DNA from: Promethearchaeota archaeon
GTDB taxonomy: Archaea > Asgardarchaeota > Lokiarchaeia > Sigyniarchaeales > SOKP01
Reading direction: 5' to 3'
NCBI GenBank assembly: GCA_011364925.1
Contig: RDOA01000030.1
Span: forward strand, 1 to 41,244
Length of the DNA: 41,244 nucleotides
Shown here: positions 33,424-41,014 of the stretch, in pieces
How positions within the stretch are numbered: the first letter of the stretch is position 1
How the letters are laid out: every line of letters starts with the position of its first letter
The notes under the pieces: model-generated
The model's input: the letters and a program-made list of their open reading frames with translations, nothing else
Databases searched by the model: none
Told to the model about the DNA's origin: nothing
Program-made: the position numbers and the translations under genes

Positions 33424-34926
33424 TTAAATCCTTACTAGAATATCATGAGTGTTCATATAATCCTTTAAGTCTTTAATTTTCAAAAGATTATAATGGAATA
33501 ATGAAGCTGCTAGAACTGCTTCAGCTCCGTTATTGATAGCTTCAATGAAATGGTCTTTATTACCAGCCCCACCAGACGCAATTACGGGTACAGAAACTCT
33601 ATCTGTTATAGCTCGAATCAGGTCAAGATCATATCCTTGACTTGTTCCGTCTCTATCCATACTTGTTACTAACAGCTCTCCCGCTCCTTTTTCAACAACT
33701 AATTTTGCCCATTCTAACACATCGAGACCAGTGGGTTTAGTACCACTATGTGAATATACTTCCCACGATTGACCCTTTTTCTTTGCGTCAATTGCGACGA
33801 CGATGCACTGAGCTCCGAATTTATTCGCTCCTTTAGTTATTAAATTTGGATCTTCTATCGCCGCTGAATTTATACTCACTTTTTCAGCTCCAGCTTTGAT
33901 TATTGCTGTCATGTCCTCGATTGTTTTAATTCCTCCACCAACTGTAAGTGGAATGTATACTTCTTCGGCAACGGAACGAATCGTATTGAGCATACTTTTT
34001 CGTCCTTCTAATGTAGCCGATATGTCTAAAAAAACTAACTCATCTGCGCCACTCTCGTTGTAATATTGAGCAAGTTCAACTGGGTCTCCACTATCTCGTA
34101 ATTCTTTGAACTTTATCCCTTTAACAACTCTTCCATTTTTCACATCAAGACAAGGGATAATCCGTCGTACTAAATGAGAACCATGAAGCTTATCTAGGAA
34201 CGAGCTTAATGTTTCAATTGCAATACTTCCATCATATAATGCTTTCCCTACTATTACTCCATCTGAAAAATTTAGCGCATCTTCTACATCTTTTATGTTT
34301 GATATTCCACCAGACGCAATAATTCTAGTGTTGATATTCTTTTTCTCCCTCAATTCCAAATAAAGCTCTGTATTTAAACCAGAAGAGGTACCATCTCTCA
34401 TTATGTCAGTAACAATGAAATCGCGTATTCCTACGTTTTCCAGTTTAGAAAGCGCGTCAAAAACGTTTAGATTTGTATCATACTGCCATCCTTTAGTACG
34501 AACTGTTTTATTGGAGGAATCTAAAGCAATTGCAATTTTCCTTCCATACTTTTTCGATAAATCTTCCAAAAGGTTATTATCCTCAAAAGCAACAGTACCT
34601 AGTATTATTCGGTCGGCTCCCTGAATTAACAACTCATCTATCACATCAACGCTTCGGATGCCACCACCAATCTGTAACTTGATTCCGGCTTTTTTTGACA
34701 AATTAAGTAAGTTTAAAATTTTAGAATAGCTAGCATTGTTCCGATAATCTCCTGTCAATGCTCCGTCTAGGTTGATAATGTGAACCCACAAAGCACCAGC
34801 TTCTATGAAGTGTCCTAAAATAGCTACTGGATCGTCAGAATATGTGGTTTGTTTTAAATAGTCCCCCTGAATAAGTCTAACAACTCGTCCTTCCCTTATA
34901 TCAATAGCAGGTATTACAGTTTTCAT
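33424..34926 (-). CDS. hisAF: Fused HisA-HisF (ProFAR isomerase plus IGP synthase cyclase subunit)
   Basis: N-half has VIPAIDIREGRVVRLIQG (HisA); C-half has RRIIPCLDVKNGRVVKG, DELVFLDISA, LVTSMDRDGT, VLAASLFH (HisF); single 500-aa ORF. Confidence 0.93.
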   Translation of the reverse strand: MKTVIPAIDIREGRVVRLIQGDYLKQTTYSDDPVAILGHFIEAGALWVHIINLDGALTGDYRNNASYSKILNLLNLSKKAGIKLQIGGGIRSVDVIDELLIQGADRIILGTVAFEDNNLLEDLSKKYGRKIAIALDSSNKTVRTKGWQYDTNLNVFDALSKLENVGIRDFIVTDIMRDGTSSGLNTELYLELREKKNINTRIIASGGISNIKDVEDALNFSDGVIVGKALYDGSIAIETLSSFLDKLHGSHLVRRIIPCLDVKNGRVVKGIKFKELRDSGDPVELAQYYNESGADELVFLDISATLEGRKSMLNTIRSVAEEVYIPLTVGGGIKTIEDMTAIIKAGAEKVSINSAAIEDPNLITKGANKFGAQCIVVAIDAKKKGQSWEVYSHSGTKPTGLDVLEWAKLVVEKGAGELLVTSMDRDGTSQGYDLDLIRAITDRVSVPVIASGGAGNKDHFIEAINNGAEAVLAASLFHYNLLKIKDLKDYMNTHDILVRI

Positions 34927-34931
34927 ATTTC

Positions 34932-35558
34932 TTACACCTTATCTTTTAGCGATTCAACCCAATATTTCAAGATACTTTCTCCTAATGTTTTACTTTTCTC
35001 TGGGTGGAACTGGATTGCTAAGATCGTTCCGTACTTAAAAATAACTCCAAATTTAATCCCATGTAAGGTAAATGCAATCATAGAAGTTTTATCAGCCGCG
35101 TCACAGTAGTATGTGTGGTTAAAGTAAGCAAATCCCGAAAAGTATGGCTCTTTTATAGAAATGACGCGGTTCCAACCTGTGTGTGGCACTCGAATCATAC
35201 CAGTAAAGCTCAATTTTTTCACGCTTCCCGGAATAATTCCTAATCCCTCAAAACCTGGGCTTTCTTCTGATTTGCTAAATAATAGTTGTAAACCTAAACA
35301 GATTCCTAAAGTTGGAGTTTTAGGAATAATCTGTTTTAACAGTTCAAAAAGATCTTTTTTCCTTAGTTCTTGAACTGCGTCTCCAAAAGCGCCTACACCT
35401 GGTAAAACAATCCCTAATGCTCCTTTGATTTTATGTTTTTCATTAGAGATTATCACATCAGGGTAAAACCGTTGTAAAGACCGTTGAACAGAACGTAAAT
35501 TCCCACTTCCATAATCGATTATTGTGATCATTAGTAAATCCTTTAACTGATCGAACAA
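34932..35558 (-). CDS. hisH: IGP synthase glutaminase subunit (start probably ATG 35531)
   Basis: IIDYGSGNLRSV, LPGVGAFG, GICLGLQ, PHTGWN, QFHPEKS. Confidence 0.95.
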   Translation of the reverse strand: MFDQLKDLLMITIIDYGSGNLRSVQRSLQRFYPDVIISNEKHKIKGALGIVLPGVGAFGDAVQELRKKDLFELLKQIIPKTPTLGICLGLQLLFSKSEESPGFEGLGIIPGSVKKLSFTGMIRVPHTGWNRVISIKEPYFSGFAYFNHTYYCDAADKTSMIAFTLHGIKFGVIFKYGTILAIQFHPEKSKTLGESILKYWVESLKDKV

Positions 35559-35570
35559 ATATTTAATTTC

Positions 35571-36215
35571 TTATAATGTTCCCTTAGTAGATGGAACACT
35601 GTTTCGTCGTTTAGGGTTAAACCTAGATGCCATATCCAGAGAAGAGCCAAGAGCCTTAAAAACAGACTCTGCTATGTGATGATCGTCTTTTCCAGAAAGT
35701 ACCTTAACATGAAGTGTTATACCGGCGTGGACTGCAAATGTTTGTAAAAAATGTTCTACTAAGGTAAGTGGTATTAACTCGTCTTGAACTTTCCCTAAAT
35801 ATGTACCAGTCCAAGGGATATCGATACTTGAATATGGTCGGTTTGAAAAATCAACAACTACTAAGGCAAGGGCGTCATCCATCGGTACATACGAAAAACC
35901 AATGCGAGTTATTCCAGTTTTATCTCCAATTGCTTGTTTGAAAGCCGCACCTAGTACTATTCCCACATCTTCTATGGTATGATGAGTATCAACATGTAAA
36001 TCCCCTTGAGCCTTTACTTCAATATCAAATGTCCCATGAACAGCGATATGATCTAACATATGGTCCAAAAATCCAACACCCGTATTTATATTAGAATTTC
36101 CAGAACCATCGATATTCAACAAAACTCTAACATTTGTTTCTTTAGTTGTTCTTTCTTGAGTAGACTTGCGATCCATTTTAATTTCCACCTTTGAAAAATA
36201 ATTTGATTTTATCAA
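35571..36215 (-). CDS. hisB: Imidazoleglycerol-phosphate dehydratase (start probably ATG 36176)
   Basis: RTTKET, FLDHML, DTHHTIED, DDHHIAE, PSTKGTL; no phosphatase domain. Confidence 0.95.
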   Translation of the reverse strand: MIKSNYFSKVEIKMDRKSTQERTTKETNVRVLLNIDGSGNSNINTGVGFLDHMLDHIAVHGTFDIEVKAQGDLHVDTHHTIEDVGIVLGAAFKQAIGDKTGITRIGFSYVPMDDALALVVVDFSNRPYSSIDIPWTGTYLGKVQDELIPLTLVEHFLQTFAVHAGITLHVKVLSGKDDHHIAESVFKALGSSLDMASRFNPKRRNSVPSTKGTL

Positions 36216-37302
36216 TAACTTTTTCCATATTTTCTTGTAGACCGATGCTAATCCTTAGATTATTAACCATATCCTGTGATGAATAATAACGTACAAGAAT
36301 CCCTTTCGAATATAAATATTCGTAAAGGCTTTTTGCTACTTCTGGAGTTTCAAATGTGAGTAAAATATAGCAAGCTTCACTCCGATGAATCCAGAATGCT
36401 TTATTTTGATTTTGAATTAATTTAAGTTGATTAATAAACCATTCTCTTGTTTTTTTAATTTCAATTATTCGTTTCTCCACTAAATGACTTGATAAGGCTG
36501 CTATCGCCGCTTTTTGTCCAGCAATATTAACATTGTAAGGCTGTTTGATCGACACTAAGACTTTTCGGATATCGTTTGGTATTATCCCGTACCCCACGCG
36601 TAGCCCACCTAAACCATAAGCCTTGCTAAATGTTCGAAGAACAACAATATTATCGTATTGAGGGATCCAATTAGCTAAACTCTGATAATTTGAGAATTCT
36701 ATGTACGCTTCGTCAACAATCAATAATATTGGGAGAGAAACTAAGGACTCAACAAACTTTTCAGATAAAACTGTTCCATCAGGGTTATTTGGACGAGCGA
36801 TAAAAACTATTTTTGCATGTTTGGCTGCATCTAAAAATTTAGCCTCGTCGAGGATATAGCGAGCAAAAGATTCATCTTTAACTAGCTGCATGGGAACGGT
36901 TACGTGCTTAATTCCGTAGACTTGAGATAAAAACGAAATCATACCAAAAGTGGGAGAAACGGAGAGTATTGAATCATAGGGATTTGCGTAAGCTTTAATG
37001 AGCAATTCAATCAACTCGTCAGATCCAGAACCTACAATAATGTTGTTGGCAATCAAATTCTCTTTAATTGCTATACTCTGAATTAAGATTGAACATAAGG
37101 GATCTGGATAGAAATTAATTCTCTTGAGAGAACTTAACGCATTCAATACTTCTGGCAATGGTTCATAAGGGTTTTCATTTCCGTCAAGTTTAATAATATT
37201 CGAAGTAGGAATCTGTAATTCTTCGGCAATTGCTTCTAAAGGTTTCACTCCGCTATAACTTTTGATTGAAGCTAAACGGTCTACGATTTTAATTTTCGTC
37301 AT
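36178..37302 (-). CDS. hisC: Histidinol-phosphate aminotransferase
   Basis: KLDGNENP, YPDP, GSDELI, PNNPDG, DEAYIEF, RTFSKAYGLGGLRVGY. Confidence 0.95.
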   Translation of the reverse strand: MTKIKIVDRLASIKSYSGVKPLEAIAEELQIPTSNIIKLDGNENPYEPLPEVLNALSSLKRINFYPDPLCSILIQSIAIKENLIANNIIVGSGSDELIELLIKAYANPYDSILSVSPTFGMISFLSQVYGIKHVTVPMQLVKDESFARYILDEAKFLDAAKHAKIVFIARPNNPDGTVLSEKFVESLVSLPILLIVDEAYIEFSNYQSLANWIPQYDNIVVLRTFSKAYGLGGLRVGYGIIPNDIRKVLVSIKQPYNVNIAGQKAAIAALSSHLVEKRIIEIKKTREWFINQLKLIQNQNKAFWIHRSEACYILLTFETPEVAKSLYEYLYSKGILVRYYSSQDMVNNLRISIGLQENMEKVIDKIKLFFKGGN

Positions 37303-38624
37303 TTAGCTCTCCTCCTTGCAGCCTCTGAATGAGCTTGAAGTTCTTCATTACAAGCTAATATTTCAGCTAATGGTGCAATCGATTTTACCGTCTTCCTGTC
37401 CAGTGATATAAGACTTGTGATTTTGATGAAATCTAAAACTGAAAGTGGTGATGAAAATTTTGCCGCACCACCTGTTGGCATTACATGACTTGGTCCAGCG
37501 ATATAATCCCCCAATACTTCGCAAGAAGATTCACCTAAGAAAATGCCCCCTGAATTTTTAATAAGCGGTAATAATTGTTTGGGATTCTTAGTTACAATAG
37601 ACAAGTGTTCTGGTGCGAAATTGTTAATCACAGATATCGCTCTCTCAGTGTTAGGAACTACTATAATACCTCCATTATTTTTTATCGCGTGTTCTGCGAT
37701 TTTGGAACGAGGTAAATCGAGAATTTGTTCCTCTATTGATGTCTTGACCTTATTTGCAAGATCTTGGCTTGTTGTCATTATTATCGGAATTGCTAAATAA
37801 TCGTGTTCAGCTTGAGCAAGCAAATCAGAAGCAATCAATTCTGGATTTGCAGACTCGTCAGCGAAAATTACAGCTTCTGTTGGACCGGCTATACCGTCAA
37901 TTCCAACGATGCCAAAAACCTCTCGCTTAGCTAAAGTCACGAAAATATTCCCTGGACCAATGATTTTATTAACTCTTGGAACTGATTCGGTACCATATGC
38001 AAGTGCCGCAATTGCTTGGACACCACCAATTTGTAAAACCCTGATTTTAGCATGCAGAGCGCGCATTATATTACACGTTGCTAAAATTATAGAAGAAATT
38101 GGAGGTGGACTTACTATCACTATTTCTTCAACTCCCGCAACAATCGCGGGAGAAACACTGTGGATGACGGTTGATGGAAGAGGAGCAGATCCTCCCGGTA
38201 TGTAAAAACCCACTCGCCGAATAGGATTAATAATTTGACCTAAAGATCCTCCTAATTCTTCTGTGGTCCAAGACGACAAAGGTTGCTTTCTGTGAAATGC
38301 TATTATTCTATCTCTAGCACTGATTAATGCTTCCTTTACCTCATCATCTATAGACTTCAAGGCAGATTCCAATAACTCCGATTTGACTTCAATGTTGTCG
38401 CCAATATTGAATTTATCTAGTTTCCAAGTCCATTCAATAAGAGCACGATCTCCTTTTTCAATAACATCGTTAATAATTTTCCTGACAACTTCTAGAGGAG
38501 TTAAAAGTTCTCCAAATAGTTCAACAATCCGTTTGTTTATTTGAGGTGGAAGAGATACATCTACGATTGGTTTGCGTATCAGTATAGATTTCTCAGCTTC
38601 TTCGACAGTGTAGATTGGAATCAT
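37299..38624 (-). CDS. hisD: Histidinol dehydrogenase
   Basis: YIPGG, GPGNIFV, AGPTE, LLAQAEHD, APEHL, GDYIAGPSHVMPT. Confidence 0.96.
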   Translation of the reverse strand: MIPIYTVEEAEKSILIRKPIVDVSLPPQINKRIVELFGELLTPLEVVRKIINDVIEKGDRALIEWTWKLDKFNIGDNIEVKSELLESALKSIDDEVKEALISARDRIIAFHRKQPLSSWTTEELGGSLGQIINPIRRVGFYIPGGSAPLPSTVIHSVSPAIVAGVEEIVIVSPPPISSIILATCNIMRALHAKIRVLQIGGVQAIAALAYGTESVPRVNKIIGPGNIFVTLAKREVFGIVGIDGIAGPTEAVIFADESANPELIASDLLAQAEHDYLAIPIIMTTSQDLANKVKTSIEEQILDLPRSKIAEHAIKNNGGIIVVPNTERAISVINNFAPEHLSIVTKNPKQLLPLIKNSGGIFLGESSCEVLGDYIAGPSHVMPTGGAAKFSSPLSVLDFIKITSLISLDRKTVKSIAPLAEILACNEELQAHSEAARRRAK

Positions 38625-39634
38625 TGATTTCCCTCTAACTTCTTTAATAATTTTTTATATCGCAATGGTTCTTCTTCGAAGATGAATAAAGTAGGACTCA
38701 CGACAACCCCACTTCCGCCAATTTCTCTCAGTGCTCTTATAGTTTTAGTCAATTTTCTTTTTTCAACAATAATATGAATCGCAAACCAAGATCCGCCTTC
38801 TGAAGAAATGATTGGAGAGATAGTGGGACCTTGAAGCCCCATTAAATTTTCTTTCGTAGCCATTTTTTCTGCAATACTTTCTGGAGTGTCTCCTCGCATA
38901 TTTATAAATACTGATATGTAATTTTTTGCTCTTAGAGTAGCTTCAAAGTATTCTAAAAATGTTCGACAGGTTTCTAATGCGTGTTGATTTTCTCTTAAGA
39001 TCTTTCGGTTTGCTATAAAGCAGGCTTGTGATTGAAGAATACAACCCCCTTGAATTCTTTTAAGCCTATTATCTTTTAGTGTTTGGCCTGTCGAGACTAA
39101 ATCGACAATAATATCTGAATATCCCAACGTAGGAGCGACTTCTAACGTACCTTCAGCCCGAAATAACTCAAAATCTAACCCGCGCTTATTGAAAAACTCT
39201 TTTGTTAATGAGGGGAATTTAGAGGCAACGCGTAAAGTTTGATTGCGTTGTTTTAACTCTTCTATTGAATTTTCAACCCAATTTTCCGGTATTGATACTT
39301 CAAGAGTACAACTTCCGAAACCTAAATCCTCGTGAACAATTAGAATTTTATTTGGTTCTTGCAGTGTAAACTCAGATAATATATCCAAACCAACTATACC
39401 ATAGGCTAAATTCCCGTTAAAAACTCCGTTGATTATATCCTTTTGCCGTTGAAATACTACTTGAATATCTGGGAATCCTTCTAACCATCCTATATATTGC
39501 TGTCGATTTCTTCTAAGTTTGAATCCACAAGAATCAAGAAAGTCTTGAGTTTCGGAAGTCATACGACCTTTTGAGGGAATTCCAATTCGTAGCATATTCG
39601 AATTAAAATTCTCCTTTACATTTTTAGTTTCCAT
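38621..39634 (-). CDS. hisG: ATP phosphoribosyltransferase, long form
   Basis: IGIPSKGRM, GTLEVAP, IVDLVSTGQTLKDNRL, C-terminal GLQGPTISP regulatory domain. Confidence 0.95.
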   Translation of the reverse strand: METKNVKENFNSNMLRIGIPSKGRMTSETQDFLDSCGFKLRRNRQQYIGWLEGFPDIQVVFQRQKDIINGVFNGNLAYGIVGLDILSEFTLQEPNKILIVHEDLGFGSCTLEVSIPENWVENSIEELKQRNQTLRVASKFPSLTKEFFNKRGLDFELFRAEGTLEVAPTLGYSDIIVDLVSTGQTLKDNRLKRIQGGCILQSQACFIANRKILRENQHALETCRTFLEYFEATLRAKNYISVFINMRGDTPESIAEKMATKENLMGLQGPTISPIISSEGGSWFAIHIIVEKRKLTKTIRALREIGGSGVVVSPTLFIFEEEPLRYKKLLKKLEGNQ

Positions 39635-40544
39635 TTTTTCTTCTCCTCCCTAATTCATTTAAAATATCTTGAAGTTTTACCCCTTCTTTAACCATTAAAA
39701 CTAAAATAAAATAGGTTAAGTCGGCGATTTCCCAAACAAGATTATCCTTATCAGTAAAATTTATTACTTCCAAGCTTTCTTCCCTGATTTTTGAAAGCAA
39801 CAATTTATTGTCTTCAGCAAGCTTCTTAGTATATGAATTTGATACTATCGAGTTCTGAATTCTATCGACAAGTATATCATAGAGAACGCTTAAGGAAAAT
39901 TCTCTATCTTGAAAACATGAATACGTTCCTCTGTGGCAAGCGTATCCACATTGCTCAACTTTGAACAAAAGAGCGTCGTTATCGCAATCAAAAAGAATCT
40001 TTTTTACTTCCTGATAATTTCCCGACTCCTCTCCCTTTATCCATAACTTATTTCTTGATCTACTGAAATATATCGCTTTCCGAGTGCTTATCGTCTGCTT
40101 CAAAGATGCTTTAGAAGAATAAGCAAGCATTAGCACTGTATTGTTTTGATCTTGCACTACAGTTGGAATTAGTCCTAATCCTTTATCAAAATCGAGAAGA
40201 TTGAGCAAGCGATCGTCTATGAAAGAATATTTCATTTTTGGATCAAAATGAATAACTTCATAAAAATTAGGCAAGGAGTGAGTAATAATTCTGTAACCAT
40301 TTTTGTTTAACAGGTTTTTCAACTCGCACTGGTCCTCATCAATATCAAATCTAAGATCTAAATTCCAAAATAGTTCATTCAATTCTTTCCTATTTAAGTC
40401 TAGCTTTTCGAAATCCTGCTTATTGATTTTAATTACTAAAGTACAAAAGACATCCCAATTCCGCTTTGTAAAGATTTCTTTAATAAACTGAGTAATTCCT
40501 CCAACCTGTTCAAGATCTTTCATTTCCACTTTTAATATTAACAT
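39624..40544 (-). CDS. hisIE: Bifunctional PR-AMP cyclohydrolase / PR-ATP pyrophosphatase with ~115-aa N-terminal extension
   Basis: GLIPTVVQD, FSRSRNKLWIKGEESG, DCDNDALL, CHRGTYSCF (HisI); SYT..L, KIREE, EIADL (HisE). Confidence 0.93.
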   Translation of the reverse strand: MLILKVEMKDLEQVGGITQFIKEIFTKRNWDVFCTLVIKINKQDFEKLDLNRKELNELFWNLDLRFDIDEDQCELKNLLNKNGYRIITHSLPNFYEVIHFDPKMKYSFIDDRLLNLLDFDKGLGLIPTVVQDQNNTVLMLAYSSKASLKQTISTRKAIYFSRSRNKLWIKGEESGNYQEVKKILFDCDNDALLFKVEQCGYACHRGTYSCFQDREFSLSVLYDILVDRIQNSIVSNSYTKKLAEDNKLLLSKIREESLEVINFTDKDNLVWEIADLTYFILVLMVKEGVKLQDILNELGRRRKNGN

Positions 40545-40633
40545 AATTCACCCCCAAAACTGAATAAGATTTCAGTTCGATTTAATTCCAATGAATTATC
40601 GAATATAAGTACTACCTTAATTCATCGGAATTA
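40542..40633 (-). promoter_or_regulatory. Candidate his translational attenuator (alternative helices, anti-SD)
   Basis: 16-bp helix 40633-40618/40598-40583 versus 10-bp helix 40599-40590/40552-40543 covering the SD and AU of the hisIE start; 7-bp hairpin 40558-40577. Confidence 0.65.
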
Positions 40634-40744
40634 TTCATGATGCTGATGATGATGAAAATGTGAAAATTGTTGAGAACAATTTAGTATTTCATCCGATCGA
40701 ATAACTATAGTGTTATTTGACCCATCAACTACAACTAAACTCAA
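40631..40744 (-). CDS. His operon leader peptide, 37 aa, MSLVVVDGSNNTIVIRSDEILNCSQQFSHFHHHQHHE
   Basis: SD GAAAGGAG (40760-40753) 8 nt before TTG; six CAT His codons within 8 codons near the stop; ends 86 nt before hisIE on the same strand. Confidence 0.78.
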   Translation of the reverse strand: MSLVVVDGSNNTIVIRSDEILNCSQQFSHFHHHQHHE

Positions 40745-41014
40745 TAGATTTACTCCTTTCTTTATTAGAAATCCCATATCAATTACCTATTGAGTTCTTA
40801 TTCTATAGATAAAAATGTATTTTATTGACTACTATATGCACCGTAAACTAAAAAAGTTAACTATGATGGAATGATTTCATATAACTGAAATTTAGTCTGG
40901 TTAGACCTTTTTTAGTTGGACTAACTATTTTAAAAAATTTATAATTCTAACGATTCTTAAGTTAGATCAGATTCTTTTATAAAAAATCCTATAGAAATAG
41001 ATGGAGTATATCCA

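Follow-up and report, generated by a model that had tools for sequence, protein, structure and literature searches.

A conserved His-codon leader ORF upstream of a Lokiarchaeial his operon as a probable ribosome-stalling histidine sensor

Leader-peptide attenuation is a textbook form of bacterial gene regulation. Does the his operon of an archaeon begin with a leader of this kind, and how would a ribosome that translates it control the genes downstream? The question is raised by a contig of 41,244 nucleotides (C39; this whole stretch is called the window here), on which a short open reading frame (ORF) ending in a cluster of His codons precedes hisIE. The host genome is 3.9 Mb in size and 100% complete. 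The initial annotation had placed it among the archaea, with the proviso that a bacterial contig would remove the novelty for archaea. Three lines of evidence confirm that the contig belongs to a Lokiarchaeon (Promethearchaeota). The nearest hisG relatives share 77-80% identity and the kdd/his synteny, and lie on contigs that are almost all titled Promethearchaeota, Promethearchaeia, Hermodarchaeota or uncultured archaeon. The taxon-assigned matches among the top 120 proteins are all archaeal and nearly all Asgard. Finally, the genome encodes aCPSF1 (TIGR03675 above cut-off).

The his operon is located on the minus strand in the order hisIE-G-D-C-B-H-AF, with kdd divergent. Its first gene, hisIE (39624..40544, minus strand), is recognized by NF002747 above cut-off over residues 114-303 and carries an extra N-terminal segment of 110 aa. 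It is followed by hisG, hisD, hisC, hisB, hisH and a fused hisA-hisF (33424..39634, minus strand), all assigned with NCBIfam. An upstream element at 40835..40862 (minus strand), conserved in L055-L058, L069 and L070, is a candidate leader promoter and possibly also serves the divergent kdd.

Each of the sequence elements initially described for the leader was found at its place. Six CAT codons lie within eight codons at 40637..40660 (minus strand), a cluster that is conserved in homologues; the leader TAA occupies 40633-40631 and is separated by 86 nt from the hisIE ATG at 40544. The start codon had to be revised. The proposed start, TTG 40744, is present together with GAAAGGAG at 40760-40753, 8 nt upstream, but relatives conserve the start at ATG 40777 instead. 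TTG 40744 was rejected on the grounds that the frame is open to ATG 40777 and that both the relatives and public gene calls favour the latter. At the position of 40777 the relatives harbor an ATG or a TTG, in most cases with a GTGA-type Shine-Dalgarno (SD) motif 6-9 nt upstream; L066-L068 are too diverged for their start position to be fixed firmly. The 48-aa form is the one called in public annotations of near-identical contigs. The SD-like motif before TTG 40744 is restricted to the closest group, and TTG 40744 itself sits in an arm of a conserved helix (P1, below). The leader ORF thus comprises 48 codons from an ATG start (40631..40777, minus strand), as indicated by the open frame, by homologues of 36-54 codons and by the public gene calls. 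The His run in this ORF is not a product of chance. Among the 3,927 intergenic ORFs of 8-80 codons that lie upstream of a gene in the whole genome, the leader is the only one with at least four His per ten codons: 11 ORFs have three, none has four or five, and the leader has six.

We performed a homologue search with the HisIE N-terminal segment as query. This search retrieved 15 genomes from two genera and two metagenome contigs, one of which duplicates a genome, leaving 16 distinct loci. The initial annotation had asked for a His-codon leader upstream of related his operons, and one was seen throughout: a His-ended leader ORF stands before hisIE in 16 of the 16 distinct loci having this hisIE type. 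These leaders have 36-54 codons, with 4-7 His codons in the last 13, and all 16 carry a His pair at codons -7/-6 or -6/-5. The distance from leader stop to hisIE ATG is 75-87 nt in every locus and 85-87 nt in 13 of them. The 16 clusters contain 69 CAT vs 3 CAC codons. Gaps within the ORF in alignment A1 measure 6, 9, 12 and 42 nt, all multiples of three, and the two alternative frames over the same span contain 61 and 128 stops, the in-frame count of zero holding by definition. Three additional close contigs show the same leader pattern. Another four genomes carry His leaders unlike these in sequence. The one in G067 stands before hisIE and has eight His; those in G061, G063 and G055 stand before hisC and have 4-7. 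G055, a single-contig genome of 6.0 Mb, belongs to another family. About 20 relatives carry a His leader upstream of his genes. No His ORF was found in a sister clade of about ten genomes from the same genus, which has a short 5' region and a HisIE with a different and longer N-terminus. Likewise, inspection around the 14 loci of a second, distant hisG type and at the Thermoflexus hisG loci revealed no His leader. The strongest sign of a sensor is that the His leader tracks his genes across differing gene orders.

An alternative that involves no sensing is that the ORF is incidental, or that its 48-aa product is a His-tailed (metal-binding) mini-protein. The peptide is indeed long for a leader, its middle is partly conserved and gene callers call the ORF; it is nonetheless always located before the first his gene, whichever gene that is, and with unrelated peptides. 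Its length varies from 36 to 54 aa and a 14-codon deletion is tolerated, its His codons are nearly all CAT and are tied into helices, and the peptide has no Pfam match. We thus regard a mini-protein or an incidental ORF as highly improbable. Leaving the output aside, we estimate at roughly 0.9 the probability that the leader acts as a ribosome-stalling histidine sensor. The comparison of sequences argues for a real, conserved His-sensing leader in Lokiarchaeia, which very probably switches the his genes on when histidine is short.

A consensus fold was computed with RNAalifold from 13 leaders, whose kinship inflates covariation tests. It comprises four helices in which 96.8% of cells are paired, and double changes occur at 7 pairs located in P2, P4 and P5; none of 500 shuffles gave as high a covariation count and no slid register equals it, a comparison that kinship inflates as well. 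P1, with 98% of its cells paired in the 13 sequences, encloses the SD and AUG of the leader itself. Its 5' arm lies at 40787..40796 (minus strand), and its 3' arm at 40738..40747 (minus strand), defined by the alignment fold, contains TTG 40744. P1 is almost invariant in the 13 sequences, without compensatory change. P2 is a hairpin within the leader ORF (40696..40721, minus strand; 95% paired) with compensatory change in 3 of its 9 pairs. Segment A (40687..40694, minus strand) is predicted to pair with the first His codons when the RNA is ribosome-free, forming P3. In 17 of 17 leaders, the His codons at -7/-6 are predicted to pair with a segment 45-62 nt upstream (P 0.45-1.0); the shifting register of P3 between leaders hides it from the alignment.

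P4 is formed by segments C and D, which correspond to segments 1 and 2 of the initial annotation. Segment C (40618..40633, minus strand), the 5' arm, starts at the leader stop and can self-fold. Segment D (40583..40599, minus strand) is the 3' arm; in this lineage, its 5' half could alternatively pair with the SD of hisIE and the spacer. The 16-bp helix expected between them (40633-40618 : 40598-40583) is present with one G-U pair and forms part of the MFE structure (z = -3.05); beginning at the stop codon, it is both conserved and covarying, and the C:D duplex energy ranges from -8 to -20 kcal/mol in 16 leaders. P5 is a hairpin (40557..40578, minus strand) that abuts the hisIE SD and is 100% paired in 13 sequences, with one compensatory pair in 3 sequences. 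Its 7-bp stem at 40577-40571 : 40564-40558, noted earlier, is present and conserved, and in several leaders P5 pairs into the first G or Gs of the SD. The SD is a conserved G run at 40548..40555 (minus strand), a role that we assume from the archaeal anti-SD. Base pairing does not by itself account for the invariance of both P1 arms and of the 5' half of D. C and D were also considered as palindromic DNA operators, and this was rejected, D being non-palindromic in the homologues.

The leader ORF, the constant spacing between His cluster and stop codon, and helices P1-P5 are all shown by sequence comparison, and we infer the later steps of a possible mechanism. The logic first proposed for this locus, in which a stall allows the helix between segments 1 and 2 to form and turns expression on, fits a conserved P4 that starts at the stop codon. 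A ribosome would load at the leader AUG during transcription, before P1 closes, and would melt P3; P1 would then limit the reloading of ribosomes. With scarce His-tRNA, the ribosome would stall 2-9 codons before the stop and leave C free, P4 would form as D emerges, and the hisIE SD next to P5 would be usable (ON). With plentiful histidine, a ribosome on the stop codon would mask C during synthesis of D, P5 and the SD. The SD, spacer and AUG would then be covered by D and the P4 loop, folding onto them along with P5, and C would self-fold after release of the ribosome, trapping a metastable OFF fold. The untranslated hisIE RNA might finally be cut or terminated by aCPSF1 (polarity). Counting against this chain, P4 and P5 form in ribosome-free RNA as they do in the stalled state, so that the OFF state would have to be kinetically trapped or else locked in by an irreversible step. 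The chain as a whole, in which the sensor acts by blocking hisIE initiation with possible polar termination thereafter, has in our estimate slightly less than an even chance of being correct, more than any other output considered here. Hungry-codon frameshifting with read-through into hisIE was also considered, and is excluded since the shifted frames from the His cluster meet stops before hisIE.

The block of hisIE initiation had originally been attributed to a 10-bp anti-SD helix. This helix can form here, 40599-40590 pairing with 40553-40544/40543, and also in the near-identical contigs L093/L094, but it is not a conserved switch. Here its columns pair at 10 of 10 positions. In 12 homologues they pair at 4-7 of 10, and none of the 12 retains the central C-G. 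The D:RBS duplex energy is -8.6 kcal/mol here vs -2.8 to -8.4 kcal/mol elsewhere, and is stronger than that of shuffles only in this genome (p about 0.04). Being lineage-specific, the 10-bp D:RBS helix was rejected as a conserved switch. A D:SD helix of at least 5 bp exists in 14 of 14 close leaders, with a chance of ~0.5 for each, and reaches 10, 9 and 8 bp in three of them. Its core, shifted in register and found with about six spacer variants, is anchored at a UUC that does not vary in D and at the 3' border of the SD; outside the present lineage the core spans 5-9 bp, mostly 5-6, and is no better than in shuffles.

Folding with segment 1 masked, which had been suggested as a check, gave a result that depends on the length of coding sequence included. 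With a coding tail of 25 nt, masking C made the RBS costlier to open in 12-13 of the 16 leaders (mean +1.4 kcal/mol), whereas with a 60-nt coding tail the effect was gone (7 up, 5 down). The RBS block by the freed segment was no larger than that by its own shuffles (mean z -0.25), and equilibrium folding of whole leaders with ribosome masks yielded no consistent RBS switch. A search for conserved alternative stems of at least 5 bp returned only weak ones and no strong mutually exclusive helix: the P1 3' arm can pair with the P5 3' arm (-1.9 kcal/mol), and C can form a self-hairpin. Most leaders permit this self-folding of C, and matched changes occur in L059, L061, L067 and L068; the self-fold could hold the OFF state after departure of the ribosome. 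The OFF fold of this leader is 7.8 kcal/mol less stable than the ON fold, with a findpath barrier of 14.7, and the OFF-to-ON barriers computed across leaders range from 6 to 15 kcal/mol. From these models, a weak translational switch at hisIE is possible.

The same sensor might act through an output that is invisible to nested folding, such as a protein binding to D or P1, a pseudoknot, mRNA decay or reinitiation. The excess invariance of the P1 arms and of the 5' half of D would be consistent with such an output, as would the lack of a strong conserved mutually exclusive helix and the ambiguous folding logic of the L073 leader; we consider it unlikely.

Another output of the same sensor could be premature transcription termination or cleavage by aCPSF1/FttA. 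The ribosome on the stop codon would prevent P4 and expose a U-rich single strand of ~45 nt before P5 and UUUU, whereas a stalled ribosome would let P4 hide this strand. Irreversible termination would explain the weight given to a transient ribosome position and the shut-off of reloading by P1. aCPSF1 works with U4 tracts, as the Lokiarchaeal protein does in Methanococcus (PMC8716108), and the host encodes it. In addition, U8 comes directly after a hairpin in the His leader of G055, and U-rich tracts are present in L077/L078. Efficient binding of aCPSF1, however, needs two U4 tracts (PMC8716108), and between leader stop and hisIE AUG there are 0-3 per leader, with one here and none in 3 of 16 leaders. 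A bacterial-type scan revealed no terminator-like site, and it is the SD, not a U run, that P5 is linked to. The longest U run is 4 here and 3-7 in homologues. The initial annotation had argued for translational control from the lack of a GC-rich hairpin with a U-tract. No such intrinsic terminator (G+C hairpin and U run) was indeed found before hisIE, but its absence says little in archaea, because aCPSF1 works there with U4 tracts (PMC8716108). Termination or cleavage by aCPSF1 as the primary output of the histidine sensor is thus a possible, if tentative, reading.

The leader resembles enterobacterial hisL (Rfam His_leader) in being a short ORF with tandem His codons directly before a his operon, in having its control codons in a helix, and in its stop-adjacent helix, which a terminating ribosome could block (mechanism per PMC9413887). 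It differs from hisL in its archaeal host, its 36-54 codons and its helix order; the His codons pair upstream here, and the predicted untranslated default is the stalled-state fold. No match to Rfam His_leader was obtained with cmscan to E = 5, and none to the T-box (histidine T-box riboswitch) with cmscan. The leader likely acts like the bacterial His leader-peptide attenuators, yet stands outside the hisL family because it has no Rfam match, no intrinsic terminator and a different helix order. Comparative genomics has identified candidate His attenuators in the Bacillus cereus group, Eubacteriales and Erysipelotrichales (PMC9413887). These are likewise independently arisen His leaders, with 3-5 His codons, but unlike the leader described here they have terminator and antiterminator hairpins (PMC9413887). 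Some bacterial leader-peptide attenuators use an RBS sequestrator instead of a terminator (PMC9413887). In those and in the mycobacterial polycysteine uORFs (10.1101/834739), an amino-acid-rich uORF controls the next RBS, as the His leader may do; its sequestering helix, unlike theirs, is short and not conserved in register. A general feature of attenuators is a conserved helix over the stop or control codons, and here P4, which covaries, and P3, predicted in 17 of 17 leaders, occupy these positions.

Two amino-acid-codon-dependent leaders have been proposed in archaea, namely the Met-Trp minigene at Methanothermobacter thermautotrophicus trpY and the Rfam leuA-Halobacteria motif. They concern other amino acids and other lineages than the His leader, and may weaken a claim that the latter is the first in archaea. 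In the literature searched, outside which most subscription papers fall, no characterised leader-peptide attenuation in archaea or Asgard was found. Ribo-seq of Haloferax has reported uORFs without such a mechanism (PMC7261190). If true, the proposed sensor would be a leader-peptide attenuation system in archaeal relatives of eukaryotes. A conserved His sensor in Lokiarchaeia would imply a coupling of transcription and translation that is tight enough for control and, since the Asgards are the closest prokaryotic relatives of eukaryotes, would bear on the origin of uORF control. The compact element of ~250 nt offers a handle on the question whether an archaeal ribosome, once stalled, acts on initiation or on termination by aCPSF1. 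The comparisons suggest that Lokiarchaeia probably make broad use of stalling on amino-acid-specific leader ORFs (His, Trp, Leu-rich) through an RNA architecture of their own, with a His output that would be archaeal (metastable RBS fold and/or aCPSF1 cleavage) rather than a bacterial terminator.

Several other short ORFs were observed. In the host genome, an ORF of 16 codons with three Trp in the last six codons lies 160 nt before a 466-aa gene (G000:C34:3768-3818, minus strand) and, by its sequence, appears to be a second leader peptide. A Leu-rich ORF is located 120 nt before a 966-aa gene (G000:C56:2188-2289, plus strand). In the His leaders that precede hisC (L071:7191-7520; L077:2935-3230; L078:2784-3085), the His codons pair with the sequence directly after the stop. 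A second short ORF, with a strong SD and the motif G-E-Y-x-H, ends at or overlaps the hisC start in these three loci, a design that could represent a two-uORF relay. The L073 leader (L073:5964-6300) has eight consecutive His codons of mixed CAT/CAC usage; its post-stop segment could form 10 bp with the spacer and AUG of hisIE, and the sign of such a switch is ambiguous. In two loci that begin with hisG (L099:7915-8001; L100:3380-3479; one contig titled Heimdallarchaeota), a conserved ORF of 9 codons, one or two of them His, precedes the SD together with a hairpin and U runs, and this is possibly a third kind of His leader. In L098:6400-6814 and L101:6467-6884, a PHP gene precedes hisIE and open frames in the gap hold four scattered His codons.

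The HisIE N-terminal segment (window 40215-40544, minus strand) matches no Pfam family above cut-off and gave no BLASTP alignment with the HisA-like domain of L071. The N-terminus is ~200 aa in relatives and is a complete HisA-like domain in L071, and the segment may be a decayed HisA barrel. The hisG of this operon is 77-80% identical to that of the leaderless clade (window 38621-40800 vs L002-L012), whereas some leader-bearing genomes have a hisG only ~56% identical to this one and a hisIE 70-73% identical. This split in identity suggests that the operon is a mosaic and that the leader-hisIE module has been exchanged. Both hisG types occur on separate contigs in several genomes (G098, G100, G115, G123, G047). 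Finally, L039, titled Candidatus Nanopelagicaceae bacterium, holds a Lokiarchaeial kdd/his locus that is apparently the same DNA as in G011, and is probably a mislabelled record.
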